From Anaerohalosphaeraceae bacterium (GTDB lineage: Bacteria > Planctomycetota > Phycisphaerae > Sedimentisphaerales > Anaerohalosphaeraceae): a stretch of DNA of 64,000 nt. The translations under genes were made by a program, and so were the position numbers. The notes under the pieces were generated by a model. The model had not been told where the DNA came from and made no database searches. It worked only from the letters and a program-made list of their open reading frames with translations. The stretch spans positions 1-64,000 of the forward strand of contig JBNRMN010000073.1 of the NCBI GenBank assembly GCA_050309605.1. Direction: 5' to 3'. Positions 21,644 to 24,680 of this stretch are shown piece after piece; position 1 is the stretch's first letter; each line of letters starts with the position of its first letter.

Positions 21644-22612
21644 ATGGTCATCTTGGCGGGAATTGATGAGGCCGGTTACGGACCGCTGTTGGGTCCCCTG
21701 GTGGTATCGGTGGCGGCACTGGAAATGCCCGAACGCTTGCTGCGCGCTGATTTGTGGGAGCTGTTGGGCAAGGCCGTCGCAAAAGAAAAAAAGCATCTCA
21801 AGGGCCGCCTGCTCATCACCGACAGCAAAAAGGCCTATACTCCTTCAAGCGGTCTGGCCCATTTGCGCCGGACGGTATTATCGTGTCTGGCTGCGTCAGA
21901 CCCAGACAGTTTGTCCCCTGAAACCGCCGGTCAACTGCTTTGCCGGCTTTGTCCGGACGCAGCGGGTCGATTGACGGCCTATCCCTGGCATCTCAATCTG
22001 GACCGCCTGCCGCTGGGGGACAACCCGCAGGCCGTCCGGGTTGCTGCGTCGGTTCTGGATAAAACACTGGCCGAACACGATATACGCCTACACACGCTTG
22101 CCGCCCGTTGTCTCGATGTTGGTTTTTATAATCAGCGGGTCGCCGCCGTTCGCAATAAATCCCGTGTTCTGTTCGGCGAGCTGTGCGGCCTGATCAGCGA
22201 TCTGGTTTGCGGCGACGGTCCGGAGTCGTTCCAGTTCATCATCGATCGGCAGGGCGGACGGGTCCGTTATGAACAGGAATTGCTTCGCATGTTCCCGCAG
22301 GCCCGTCTGGTCGTGATTCGGCAGGACGAGAAAATAAGTTCCTACGAAATGGGTATTCAAAACAAACAAATTCGCCTTCACTTTGCCGCCGGCGCTGACG
22401 GACGCTTCCTGCCGGTTTGTCTGGCTTCGATGCTCAGCAAATATATCCGCGAAGTGGTGATGCAATCCCAAAACGCCTATTTCCTGGACCTGTGCCACTC
22501 CCTCAAACCCACCGCCGGCTACTGGCAGGACGGCCAACGCTTCATCCGCGATCTCTCGGAAAAACTTCCGGATTTTACCTTCGAATCCCAACAGCTCATC
22601 CGCTCCCTCTAA
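21644..22612 (+). CDS. Ribonuclease HII-like protein (long form)
   Basis: GIDEAGYGPLLGPLVV, DSKK, IDRQGG, AD...V.LASM.SK, GY motifs. Confidence 0.8.
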   Translation: MVILAGIDEAGYGPLLGPLVVSVAALEMPERLLRADLWELLGKAVAKEKKHLKGRLLITDSKKAYTPSSGLAHLRRTVLSCLAASDPDSLSPETAGQLLCRLCPDAAGRLTAYPWHLNLDRLPLGDNPQAVRVAASVLDKTLAEHDIRLHTLAARCLDVGFYNQRVAAVRNKSRVLFGELCGLISDLVCGDGPESFQFIIDRQGGRVRYEQELLRMFPQARLVVIRQDEKISSYEMGIQNKQIRLHFAAGADGRFLPVCLASMLSKYIREVVMQSQNAYFLDLCHSLKPTAGYWQDGQRFIRDLSEKLPDFTFESQQLIRSL

Positions 22613-22799
22613 AACCGATGGTCGATTCCGAAACAACAGGGGCAGGCCTGCGTATCCGCCTTAAAAACGTTCATAGGTGCATCGTTTTTTCGAAAATGCT
22701 GATTTTTTCCGTCAACAAGAAGGCATGTCATGTCAAAAATATGTAATTTTTCGGGTTTGCGGGTTGCCAAAAAATTTTTGAAAAATCGTTCGGTTTTTG

Positions 22800-22827
22800 T
22801 TAGGTTTTTTTGACGGAATGCCGATAA
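22800..22827 (+). promoter_or_regulatory. sigma-28 (FliA/WhiG)-like promoter upstream of orf177-lexA
   Basis: Exact GCCGATAA at 22820-22827; TTAGGTTT/TAGGTTTT at -35 spacing (consensus TAAAGTTT-N11-GCCGATAA). Confidence 0.5.
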
Positions 22828-22876
22828 TCTAACAGACAGAGGTTTTGGATGGACCCAAAATTAAGGAATCCGTACG

Positions 22877-23410
22877 ATGGAACGAGAACATTCAGACATG
22901 AGCAAGTTGCCTTTATGCCGATTCGGCCCGGGCGGTGATTTCGTCCACAACTGGCACGGCGCGCCGAACGAATCAGCCGAGCAGGCCCCCGGTACGCCAT
23001 TGACCGGCGTACTGACGACGATTGCCGGGCTGCTGGGCGTAACGGTGCAGCCGGAGCTGCTGACGGAGATTGCCTGTATTCTGCCCGCCGACGCGGCCAA
23101 ACAGGATCAGCCCGCTTCAGTGGATCACAAACAGGAGAGTACGTGCAATGACTTACCCCGACCGACCGATCGACATCACGCCGCGTCAACTGGACGTCCT
23201 GGCACAAATCGCGGCCTTTCAAAGCAGCCGCTGCTATTCAGCGACGATTGGGGAGTTGGCCGAGGCGCTCAACATAAGCCGACCCACCGCGTTCGAACAC
23301 GTCGCCGGCCTGCGCGAAAAAAAGCTGATTACGCAGTCGAACGGCAGGGCACGCTCTTTGCGCTTAACGGCAAAGGGAAAACGCCTCATCGACAGGGTTC
23401 GGCGGCTTAA
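22877..23410 (+). CDS. Hypothetical 177-aa protein overlapping the lexA 5' end in an alternative frame
   Basis: AAGGAA RBS at 22863-22868; fills otherwise empty DNA before lexA; protein-like N-terminus LPLCRFGPGGDFV; two QxxLF motifs. Confidence 0.5.
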   Translation: MEREHSDMSKLPLCRFGPGGDFVHNWHGAPNESAEQAPGTPLTGVLTTIAGLLGVTVQPELLTEIACILPADAAKQDQPASVDHKQESTCNDLPRPTDRHHAASTGRPGTNRGLSKQPLLFSDDWGVGRGAQHKPTHRVRTRRRPARKKADYAVERQGTLFALNGKGKTPHRQGSAA

Positions 23411-23831
23411 ATCCCGACCGACACCGCCCCCCGCGGCTGGGTCGAATCCGGAGCAGTCTCCGTGGCTTGTGGCCGGACGCATCAGCGCGGGTTACGGCAT
23501 CGAGGCGATTGAGAATCCTCAATTATTTTCTGTGACGTCGTTTTTGGGCAGTGGACACGGCGAGTTTCTGCTCCAGGTTGTCGGCAGCAGCATGATCGAT
23601 GCGGGCATATACGACGGAGATTATATTGTATGTCGTCCTTCTGCTGCTGCGGATAACGGCCAAATCGTCGTTGCCTTGCTGAGAGATCAGACCGCGACGG
23701 TGAAGCGTTTTTATAAAACTCGAAAGGCGGTACGGCTTCAACCGGCCAATGACGCCTTTGAGCCGATTATGGCGACCGATTGCATCATCCAGGCCATTGT
23801 TACCGGCGTTATTCGCAGACTCACTCACTGA
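23148..23831 (+). CDS. lexA: LexA repressor
   Basis: AGGAGAG RBS; TPRQ..L HTH, ARSL wing, SAG cleavage site, GSSM catalytic Ser, TVKR catalytic Lys, LQPAN. Confidence 0.92.
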   Translation: MTYPDRPIDITPRQLDVLAQIAAFQSSRCYSATIGELAEALNISRPTAFEHVAGLREKKLITQSNGRARSLRLTAKGKRLIDRVRRLKSRPTPPPAAGSNPEQSPWLVAGRISAGYGIEAIENPQLFSVTSFLGSGHGEFLLQVVGSSMIDAGIYDGDYIVCRPSAAADNGQIVVALLRDQTATVKRFYKTRKAVRLQPANDAFEPIMATDCIIQAIVTGVIRRLTH

Positions 23832-23843
23832 CAAGGAAAGACC

Positions 23844-24680
23844 ATGCCCAGACCCGCTGTACAACCCGATGACGGTATTCTTGTGGTTCAGAATCTGACC
23901 AAACGATTCGGCCGGGCGCTGGTGCTCGACGGCATTTCAATGGCCATCGAGGAGGGCAAGACCACCGCCGTCATCGGCCCCAGCGGCTGCGGCAAGACGG
24001 TTTTTATGAAACATCTGATCGTGCTCGAACGCCCGACTGAAGGGAGGGTCTTTTTCCGCGGACAGCGGATGGACCAACTGGACGAAAAAGAGCTGGCCGG
24101 TATTCGCACCCGTTTTGGATTTTGTTTTCAGATGAGTGCCTTGTTTGACAGTCTGACCGTCTATGAGAATATCGTGTTCCCTGTTCGCCAGCATGTCAAA
24201 GCGATCAATGAAAAAGCCCTTGATGAGCTGGTCAAGCAGAAACTGGCGATGGTCGGCATGGACGGGTATCAGCAGCATTATCCGGCCGAGCTGTCCGGCG
24301 GACAGCGAAAGCGCGTCGCCCTGGCGCGGGCGATTGCCCTTAATCCCGAAGTCATTCTGTACGATGAGCCGACCACCGGTCTGGATCCTATCACGTCGGA
24401 TGTCATTAATGAATTGATCATAAAACTTCAAAGAGAGCTGAAGATAACCAGTGTCGTGGTTACTCATGATATGAATAGCGCCTACAAAATCGCCGACCGC
24501 ATTGTGATGCTGCACAAGGGAAAAATCATTGCCGACGGCGACGCCGAGCACATCCGCAACCATCCCAACGACCTGGTCCAGCAGTTCATTCAGGGCAAAG
24601 TCGGTCAGGCCGAGCTGGCGGCCCTTCGACTGGGCGGTACCCGACTGGAAACCCAGTTCACGCCGGACGATTTCCGCTAA
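23844..24680 (+). CDS. ABC transporter ATP-binding protein, MlaF/Mkl family
   Basis: GPSGCGKT, FQ.SALFDSLTVYEN, PAELSGGQRKRVALARA, YDEPTTGLDP, VTHD. Confidence 0.9.
   Translation: MPRPAVQPDDGILVVQNLTKRFGRALVLDGISMAIEEGKTTAVIGPSGCGKTVFMKHLIVLERPTEGRVFFRGQRMDQLDEKELAGIRTRFGFCFQMSALFDSLTVYENIVFPVRQHVKAINEKALDELVKQKLAMVGMDGYQQHYPAELSGGQRKRVALARAIALNPEVILYDEPTTGLDPITSDVINELIIKLQRELKITSVVVTHDMNSAYKIADRIVMLHKGKIIADGDAEHIRNHPNDLVQQFIQGKVGQAELAALRLGGTRLETQFTPDDFR

Follow-up and report, generated by a model that had tools for sequence, protein, structure and literature searches.

A reading frame overlapping the LexA DNA-binding domain in Phycisphaerae: a highly probable dual-coded gene and a possible binder of the sliding clamp

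Introduction

Can one stretch of a bacterial chromosome encode the DNA-binding domain of the SOS repressor and, in another frame of the same strand, a second protein, and what would that protein do? The question is raised by a locus of an Anaerohalosphaeraceae bacterium, in the 64,000 nucleotides (nt) of contig JBNRMN010000073.1 that we analysed and refer to as the window. An open reading frame (ORF) on the plus strand, at 22877..23410 and named ORF-X here, starts 271 nt upstream of the start of lexA and stays open for 263 nt across it. A preliminary description of the window had pointed out this frame of 177 codons with its own ribosome-binding site, the pentapeptides QPLLF (23225-23239) and QGTLF (23345-23359) with the basic stretch RVRTRRRPARKK between them, and the lexA codons TAT TCA, TCT TTG and TTA in the overlap. 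All of these were confirmed with their coordinates. It had further proposed an unannotated, SOS-linked, largely disordered and clamp-interacting protein that is dual-coded with lexA.

From the comparison of genomes, we consider it highly probable that ORF-X is a genuine gene, which codes for a protein from the same DNA as the DNA-binding domain of LexA, because its frame is kept open, its product is conserved at the protein level and synonymous change in lexA is suppressed. The proposal of dual coding held on all three counts. The parts of the locus needed for this argument are as follows.

22877..23410, plus strand: coding sequence of ORF-X, 177 codons and a TAA stop
22863..22868, plus strand: Shine-Dalgarno-like AAGGAA of ORF-X, 8 nt 5' of its ATG
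23148..23831, plus strand: lexA, 227 codons, with the LexA DNA-binding and S24 peptidase domains
23133..23137, plus strand: Shine-Dalgarno sequence AGGAG of lexA, inside ORF-X
23148..23410, plus strand: dual-coding stretch, 263 nt, LexA residues 1-88 against ORF-X residues 91-177

The codons of ORF-X begin one base ahead of those of lexA. LexA matches the Pfam families LexA_DNA_bind (residues 10-69) and Peptidase_S24 (residues 108-218), and the overlap spans the whole of the DNA-binding domain, with ORF-X ending just past it.

The reading frame is kept open

A search for LexA in the genome of the window and 40 relatives of the same genus, family and order gave 30 lexA loci, 26 of them complete; the other four were cut by contig ends and were open over all that is present. 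When residues 1-90 of ORF-X, the part that does not overlap lexA, were used as a tblastn query, as the preliminary description had suggested, a match was found directly 5' of lexA in 27 of the 30 loci (expectation value (E) 4e-30 to 6e-3), and the three misses were loci whose contig ends at lexA. Relative to the lexA start, the frame was free of stops from about -190 to -330 up to +226 to +265 in 30/30 loci. The stop codon lay between +241 and +265 in 29 of them and at +226 in one, most often at +244, and at +262 in the genus of the window.

The same was found in two further sets. In a cross-order set of 11 loci, which come from other orders of the class except for one from the window's own order, the frame was open in 11/11, in the same phase, and ended between +220 and +244. 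It was also open, to between +217 and +262, in 31/31 lexA-bearing loci from Phycisphaerae-type records of metagenome-assembled genomes. A frame without stops in orthologous lexA loci had been expected if the gene is real, and it was found in all three samples.

Open frames may arise by chance from the codon usage of a gene, and this was measured by shuffling codons within each lexA gene while the LexA protein was held fixed (2000 times per locus, 25 loci). The shuffles predicted 0.94-5.03 stops per locus in the frame of ORF-X, and the probability of no stop was 0.0005-0.34 per locus; the log10 values of these probabilities sum to -42.7 over the 25 loci, a sum that is overstated since the loci are kin and that must be discounted to this extent as support for the gene. 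Between most loci, the identity of LexA was only 43-55%, and therefore synonymous sites were largely randomised. For the lexA gene of the window itself, 4.0 stops were expected and 0.4% of 2000 shuffles were stop-free. Beyond the overlap, in the rest of lexA, the frame of ORF-X held 174 stops in 3443 codons, and the third frame within the overlap held 1-9 stops per locus.

Outside the class, the control consisted of 17 LexA-like loci, taken from 15 genomes that belong to other classes of the phylum; 10/17 showed one stop or more within the initial 243 nt. The remaining seven were stop-free, with a guanine plus cytosine (GC) content of lexA of 0.60-0.71, and in six of them the frame was open over most or all of the gene. 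Because of these GC-rich loci, the outgroup control is weaker than the shuffle test. None of the 17 outgroup loci carried the motifs of ORF-X.

Signals of translation and start sites

Among the 26 complete loci, the start codon of ORF-X fell at the aligned column in 23, with ATG in all 23, and a Shine-Dalgarno-like purine run preceded the aligned start in 19. For lexA, its own start codon lay at most 12 nt from the aligned position in 26/26 loci, and a Shine-Dalgarno-like site was present before it in 25/26. With separate starts and separate Shine-Dalgarno-like sites, ORF-X and LexA thus appear, from these aligned sequences, to be made as two separate proteins.

Both the free and the overlapped parts of ORF-X contain conserved elements, which are given here because the tests of selection refer to them.

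22910..22942, plus strand: N-terminal motif PLCRFGPGGDF, residues 12-22, with P12 and G17-G20 invariant, outside lexA
22997..23074, plus strand: predicted helices, residues 41-53 and 59-66, with the pattern PL..VL..IA..LG
23225..23248, plus strand: motif 1, QPLLFSDD, of which QPLLF is residues 117-121, with L120 and F121 invariant, over Arg-Cys-Tyr-Ser-Ala-Thr of LexA
23288..23323, plus strand: basic stretch RVRTRRRPARKK, residues 138-149, with R140 invariant and R144 and K148 at least 90% conserved
23345..23359, plus strand: motif 2, QGTLF, residues 157-161, with L160 and F161 invariant and Q157 and G158 at least 90% conserved, over Gly-Arg-Ala-Arg-Ser-Leu of LexA
23402..23410, plus strand: C-terminal Ala-Ala and the stop codon, the last residue being Ala in 24/26 sequences

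In 20 loci, after six close relatives had been dropped, pairwise differences at codon positions 1, 2 and 3 were 0.53, 0.46 and 0.69 in the free part of ORF-X, and 0.13, 0.11 and 0.60 in the motif PLCRFGPGGDF. By this measure the free part bears the signature of a translated sequence. In the overlapped part, the identity of translations in the ORF-X frame was 0.351, compared to 0.194 +/- 0.004 in a null of 200 synonymous shuffles, which is 35 standard deviations above that null; in a control region, the C-terminal part of lexA read in the same frame, the identity was 0.250 versus 0.231. These comparisons indicate that the ORF-X protein is under purifying selection in both its free and its overlapped parts.

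A reduction of synonymous variation in the overlapped part of lexA had been anticipated, and it was observed. Among pairs of loci that share a LexA residue, wobble identity was 0.545 in the overlap versus 0.408 in the C-terminal domain (19 loci; 59 versus 108 columns; Mann-Whitney p = 0.004). It reached 100% at Tyr30, Ile43, Phe49, Glu57, Gly66, Arg67, Arg69 and Ser70 of LexA, 89% at Thr33 and 88% at Leu71. Motif 1 of ORF-X overlies Tyr30 and Thr33, and motif 2 overlies Gly66 to Leu71; judged from the alignment, the synonymous sites of lexA are frozen where ORF-X has its motifs.

The effect may extend to the repressor itself. In the window's order, LexA has Cys-Tyr-Ser-Ala-Thr and Gly-[KR]-Ala-Arg-Ser-Leu with frozen codons (23232-23249 and 23343-23363; residues 29-34 and 66-72), and LexA proteins of other classes of the phylum mostly have Gly-x-[Ser/Pro]-Pro-Thr at the first of these places. 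The fixed TAT codon in the Tyr-Ser pair yields the invariant Phe of ORF-X. We infer that residues of LexA have probably been shaped by the overlapping frame.

A near-identical strain, represented by a contig from one DNA run and compared over 22648-24000, had just two changes inside ORF-X. The change at 23039 turns Val55 of ORF-X to Ile, and that at 23401 is silent in ORF-X and turns Arg85 of LexA to Gln. The AT-rich spacer of about 90 nt at 22678-22761 carried 12 substitutions and 3 small indels in this strain, an observation that is anecdotal.

Two explanations would do without an ORF-X protein as we describe it. Constraint on the nucleotides or the RNA might suffice, whether through structure of the messenger RNA or because ORF-X is a regulatory upstream ORF whose translation controls lexA. 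Such an explanation can draw on the fact that ORF-X is so far a matter of DNA sequence alone, and on the position of the lexA ribosome-binding site, which ribosomes on ORF-X must cross, so that translational interplay is likely whatever the product does. However, the region 5' of lexA is conserved as protein with third positions left free, the frame stays open about 80 codons past the lexA start in every locus of the three samples, the frozen wobble bases coincide with conserved residues of ORF-X and not with paired stretches, and the excess of identity over the shuffle null is in the ORF-X frame. A regulatory upstream ORF would need no fixed length, motifs or C-terminus. We therefore regard constraint without a second protein as very improbable.

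Programmed ribosomal frameshifting, which would join the upstream ORF to LexA and produce a LexA with an N-terminal extension while leaving the open stretch over lexA incidental, seems still more improbable and hardly to be expected. In its favour, a single base separates the two frames, many loci have the lexA frame open over 0-114 nt ahead of its start, and one database protein (P0044) links ORF-X to an S24 domain. Against this, lexA retains its own start and Shine-Dalgarno-like site almost throughout, and the ORF-X frame runs about 80 conserved codons past any plausible shift site to a conserved end. P0044 was rejected as a natural fusion, being a near-copy of the protein of locus L011 with garbled stretches elsewhere, as from sequencing indels.

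The ORF-X protein and its distribution

The product of ORF-X had no relatives among described families. There was no Pfam family for the protein of the window or for any of the 26 aligned members, no match in NCBIfam, and none in PHROGs and PADLOC with four members; the ORF-X profile found no relative among PDB sequences (best E 0.41), and no usable match was obtained in the ESM Atlas. The AlphaFold2 model, built on the alignment, had a mean predicted local distance difference test (pLDDT) of 58, with helices only at residues 41-53 and 59-66 and coil in the rest; residues 67-177 were without secondary structure at a pLDDT of 50-65. This model is compatible with disorder and fits the earlier view of a largely disordered protein.

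The N-terminal motif reads PLCxFGPGGD[FY] in the window's order and is reduced to hydrophobic-x-GPGG-x-[FY] class-wide. A variable linker follows the helix pattern and leads to the C-terminal motifs. Motif 1 has the in-order pattern Q-x-[LM]-L-F-x-D-D-x-G, and other orders keep only LF-x-[DN]-[DH]-x-G. Motif 2 is R-Q-G-[TS]-L-F in the order and [EQ]-Q-G-[TSA]-L-F in other orders. Between them, the basic stretch shows the conserved pattern K-x-x-H-R-x-R-x-x-R-R-x-x-R-K-[KR], and the C-terminal 70 residues have a net charge of +5 to +14 in 26/26 sequences. No conserved transmembrane segment was found: four of the 26 sequences reach a Kyte-Doolittle mean of 1.6 over 19 residues, and those segments hold charged residues.

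The family is largely confined to the class of the window. A profile from the alignment of 26 sequences, searched in 301 genomes across the phylum, matched 16, of which 15 belong to this class; the sixteenth match was borderline (E 0.009, two stops). Three genomes of the order without ORF-X were also without LexA at E <= 1e-10. ORF-X has about 150-190 residues in the window's order. Elsewhere in the class it is longer and lies in open frames of 223-435 codons over the LexA DNA-binding domain. In the proteins from these other orders (loci L037-L046), the GPGG motif is separated from the C-terminal motifs by a long insert rich in Ala and Arg. Their genomes seem GC-rich from the translations, and the true starts of ORF-X there are uncertain.

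In a scan of one genome per species with a 7-row alignment, 32 more loci were detected, at least six of which are genomes already counted; those among them that hold lexA are the 31 loci given above. Their titles name Phycisphaerae, Anaerohalosphaeraceae, Phycisphaerales, Planctomycetes and Planctomycetota, with the automatic labels Pirellulales, Planctomycetaceae and uncultured bacterium. Among 1.84 billion representative proteins, the profile matched 445 clusters at E <= 1e-3 and 318 at E <= 1e-10, and among the 150 clusters listed most were about 165 amino acids (aa) long and matched up to the profile end. P0018 and five other long proteins have N-terminal extensions without a Pfam family, and natural fusion was rejected for them too. 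A word-based search of 5.8 billion clusters returned only 14 proteins, all of them 'hypothetical protein' or unnamed; gene callers thus miss the gene almost always. Presumably, gene callers that forbid long overlaps on the same strand usually keep lexA and drop ORF-X.

Upstream region and possible relation to the SOS response

Two conserved elements precede ORF-X.

22788..22804, plus strand: conserved upstream box GTTCGGTTTTTGTTAGG, of the form GTTC-N7-GTTA, candidate operator or -35 region
22819..22826, plus strand: conserved TGCCGATA element, with GATAAT at 22823-22828, candidate -10 region

The 17-nt box, GTTCGGTTTTTGTT[ACT]GG in its relaxed form GTTC-N7-GTT[CAT], was present in 26/26 order-level loci, and an xxCCGATA element followed 3' of it in 25/26, at a spacing of about 15-20 nt by eye. 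It was found in none (0/11) of the cross-order loci, including the one that belongs to the order of the window. A weight matrix from 24 loci gave the box 31 bits in the genome, compared to 21 for the next best site, which makes it unique. We take the box to resemble the direct-repeat LexA site of Alphaproteobacteria.

A simple dyad search of the upstream region returned A/T tracts only, and a scan of 22600-23900 with the sigma-70 consensus found no promoter on the plus strand. There was no terminator-like site in 22600-23900, and hence none between ORF-X and lexA.

The link of ORF-X to the SOS response is one of position: the gene precedes lexA, a conserved box lies ahead of it, and no terminator-like site separates the two genes. 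The box was not seen before recA or before the umuDC-like operon of the genome, a point against taking SOS control as given, and the matrix picked out the lexA site only. We therefore do not put the box forward as a regulon-wide SOS operator and regard it as a candidate auto-operator only. That ORF-X is co-transcribed with lexA is, on the layout of the locus, likely. Among sequencing runs recorded as RNA, none was found to contain the locus; two compost runs labelled 'transcriptomic', rated as probably DNA, cover it only in pieces of 151-237 nt. Both would then be transcribed together from the box/CGATA region, and the level of ORF-X would rise and fall with that of lexA.

The Ala-rich C-terminus may in addition make ORF-X short-lived. 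ClpXP reads degradation tags, and the tail of ORF-X, which ends in Ala, suggests a tag of that type.

The surroundings of the two genes are as follows. A gap of 535 nt separates the upstream RNase HII-like gene from lexA; it is AT-rich at 22650-22870 (GC 0.34-0.40) and GC-rich at 22900-23100 (GC 0.65-0.68), and the GC-rich part is the lexA-free part of ORF-X. The 5' neighbour (21644-22612) encodes a protein of 322 aa that matches just the first 24 residues of the RNase HII profile. The 3' neighbour (23844-24680) is an ABC-transporter ATPase whose start lies 13 nt past the lexA stop.

Possible binding to the sliding clamp

What might the product of ORF-X do? The best explanation as a whole is a real gene whose product acts as a clamp binder, a tentative answer whose chances fall a little short of even; granted that the gene is real, binding to the clamp comes close to an even chance. 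ORF-X would act as a flexible, basic protein through short linear motifs. The cleft in which the beta sliding clamp (DnaN) binds peptides would receive its C-terminal QG[TS]LF and, in the window's order, the Qxx[LM]F-x-DD motif as well. After DNA damage, ORF-X would occupy the clefts of the clamp, and replication would be slowed or the polymerase on the clamp changed. A role as replication checkpoint or polymerase switch is speculation. The complete scenario, in which a damage-induced, short-lived and disordered ORF-X plugs the clamp clefts via two tandem motifs and serves as a replication brake or polymerase-exchange factor, is in our view unlikely.

Several observations speak for clamp binding. 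The pattern Q-x-x-[LM]-F describes both motifs, whose Leu and Phe are invariant in 26/26 sequences, and both sit in a low-confidence, non-helical region of the AlphaFold2 model. The frequency of Q..[LM]F in the long ORFs of the genome is 0.25 per 1000 residues, and therefore two in 177 residues are unusual. The genome also has a umuD-like gene (141 aa, S24 peptidase) paired with a umuC-like gene (419 aa) outside the window (contig C74, 29090-27409, minus strand). Its UmuC-like protein carries a canonical QLNLF at residues 356-360, with D-N directly after it, which means that this organism makes use of the standard clamp code.

Co-folding of two copies of the organism's DnaN (contig C90, 47378-48472, minus strand) with residues 105-177 of ORF-X, run along with three controls, gave a score of 0.47 (runs 0.49, 0.47 and 0.46) versus 0.14 for the best control, which the tool rates as 'weak support'. 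The runs agreed in at least 50% of contacts, and the pLDDT of the partner was at least 43. In the calibration of this method, the mark was reached by 116/157 solved complexes and by 2/215 mismatched pairs; only 18/157 solved complexes, but both passing mismatches, reached it with a score at or below 0.60.

There are also points that weigh against clamp binding. A pass at the level of the DnaN co-fold is, in the tool's wording, 'more often wrong than right' unless the complex was likely beforehand. Clamp-peptide complexes have already been solved, so the pass may only echo the likeness of the motifs. The Gln at position 1 is kept class-wide in motif 2 (Q157, at least 90%), whereas in motif 1 it is usual in the order only and is lost in other orders (PRLFADDAG and similar). 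According to PMC11139829, the clamp-binding motif is Q-aliphatic-x-[L/M]-[F/L], and Gly or Ala at position 2 lowers the affinity for the clamp. In motif 1 of ORF-X, position 2 is P/A/T/S/Q, and in motif 2 it is G (rarely A, S or P); in neither is it aliphatic. The clamp model gives no role to the conserved GPGG[DE][FY] motif at the N-terminus or to the helix. Finally, ORF-X is known here from the comparison of genome sequences, and from that source only. The idea of a clamp-interacting protein thus kept part of its support, in the invariant Leu and Phe and the co-fold, and lost part of it at position 2 and in the Gln of motif 1; likewise, the expected conservation of QxxLF was found class-wide for motif 2, but motif 1 keeps just LF-x-[DN][DH] outside the order.

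A rival reading is that ORF-X is a real gene of the lexA operon whose motifs bind a partner other than the clamp; we find this plausible and place it somewhat below an even chance. In that case the LF motifs would anchor ORF-X to the other partner. This might be LexA or RecA, with repressor cleavage tuned as a result, or a protease adaptor, the nucleoid or DNA by way of the basic stretch, or the division machinery. All evidence for a real gene applies to it, the match to the clamp consensus is only partial, and class-wide motif 1 is LF-x-[DN][DH]-x-G and not Q-x-x-L-F. The clamp model leaves unexplained the GPGG[DE][FY] motif and the amphipathic helix, whose conservation equals that of the C-terminal motifs, and the net charge of the C-terminal 70 residues (+5 to +14) is in keeping with this reading. 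The lexA-adjacent genes yneA, chiZ and divS of other phyla encode division inhibitors; however, a partner of the division type is made less attractive by the absence of a conserved transmembrane segment in ORF-X, unlike in those inhibitors. The co-fold with DnaN exceeded its controls, and this argues for the clamp.

Significance and comparison with known systems

For small viruses, long out-of-frame overlaps with conservation of both proteins are textbook matter; in bacteria they are disputed. The case of ORF-X and lexA is made by comparing dozens of divergent genomes and calls for no special pleading, and its overlap sits in one of the best-studied bacterial regulators. Standard gene callers hide genes such as this one. 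An unknown component would be added to the DNA-damage response of a poorly studied class, and the locus is a clean system for codon sharing, in that single wobble changes alter ORF-X and leave LexA untouched; the synonymous codon for Tyr30 of LexA, for instance, would turn Phe121 of ORF-X to Leu. If the clamp reading is true, ORF-X would represent a novel kind of small clamp regulator in bacteria, and the SOS repressor gene of a whole class would carry its own effector inside its DNA-binding domain. Repressor and effector would share 80 codons, would be inseparable by recombination and would have to co-evolve, and the unusual residues of LexA in the order (Cys-Tyr-Ser and Ala-Arg-Ser-Leu) would owe their form to what the hidden protein requires.

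Small SOS genes beside lexA include yneA in Bacillus, chiZ in Mycobacterium and divS in Corynebacterium. They are transcribed divergently, are not known to overlap lexA, and their products are membrane proteins. ORF-X is like them in being small, lineage-specific and linked to lexA, and presumably in being induced with the SOS response. Unlike them, it lies on the same strand as lexA, overlaps it and is without a conserved membrane segment.

Clamp-binding proteins such as Pol II, Pol IV, Pol V (UmuC, QLNLF) and Hda, with the motif reviewed in PMC11139829, share with ORF-X the Leu or Met at position 4 and the Phe at position 5, and also the Gln at position 1, which in motif 1 of ORF-X is usual within the order only. 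Further points of likeness to proteins with such motifs are that the motifs of ORF-X are in a flexible region, that one of them is near the C-terminus and that the context is DNA damage. ORF-X differs in having Gly or Pro/Ala/Thr/Ser at position 2, and its binding is a prediction only; it also differs in carrying tandem motifs on a small protein without an enzymatic domain. In searches of Pfam, NCBIfam and PDB sequences, no clamp partner proved related in sequence to ORF-X. A functional analogy for the proposed mechanism is offered by Spd1 of fission yeast, described in PMC10939359 as a disordered checkpoint protein with tandem PCNA-binding motifs, that is, a small disordered protein with two clamp-binding motifs in a replication checkpoint. 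Spd1, unlike ORF-X, is eukaryotic and binds PCNA and not DnaN; it is unrelated to ORF-X in sequence, and its gene is not an overlapping one.

Open-access full texts and bioRxiv preprints, with subscription journals outside this scope, yielded no description of a lexA-overlapping ORF from this class. Overprinted genes are common in viruses, according to PMC8227390, and a few bacterial candidates have been claimed, for example the antisense pairs of Pseudomonas aeruginosa (PMC8850804). ORF-X resembles overprinted genes in that two proteins come from one stretch of DNA, with synonymous change in the older gene suppressed, and in that the younger frame is lineage-restricted, seemingly poorly structured and without relatives. 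Unlike those cases, its overlap is on the same strand, extends over 217-265 nt of a cellular chromosome and covers the DNA-binding domain of a global regulator, and ORF-X is conserved across a whole class and in hundreds of sequence clusters. Overprinting as a phenomenon and clamp-binding linear motifs are thus already known; what is new is that the DNA-binding domain of the SOS repressor is covered, class-wide and on the same strand, by about 245 nt of dual coding, and that the protein family concerned is without known relatives.

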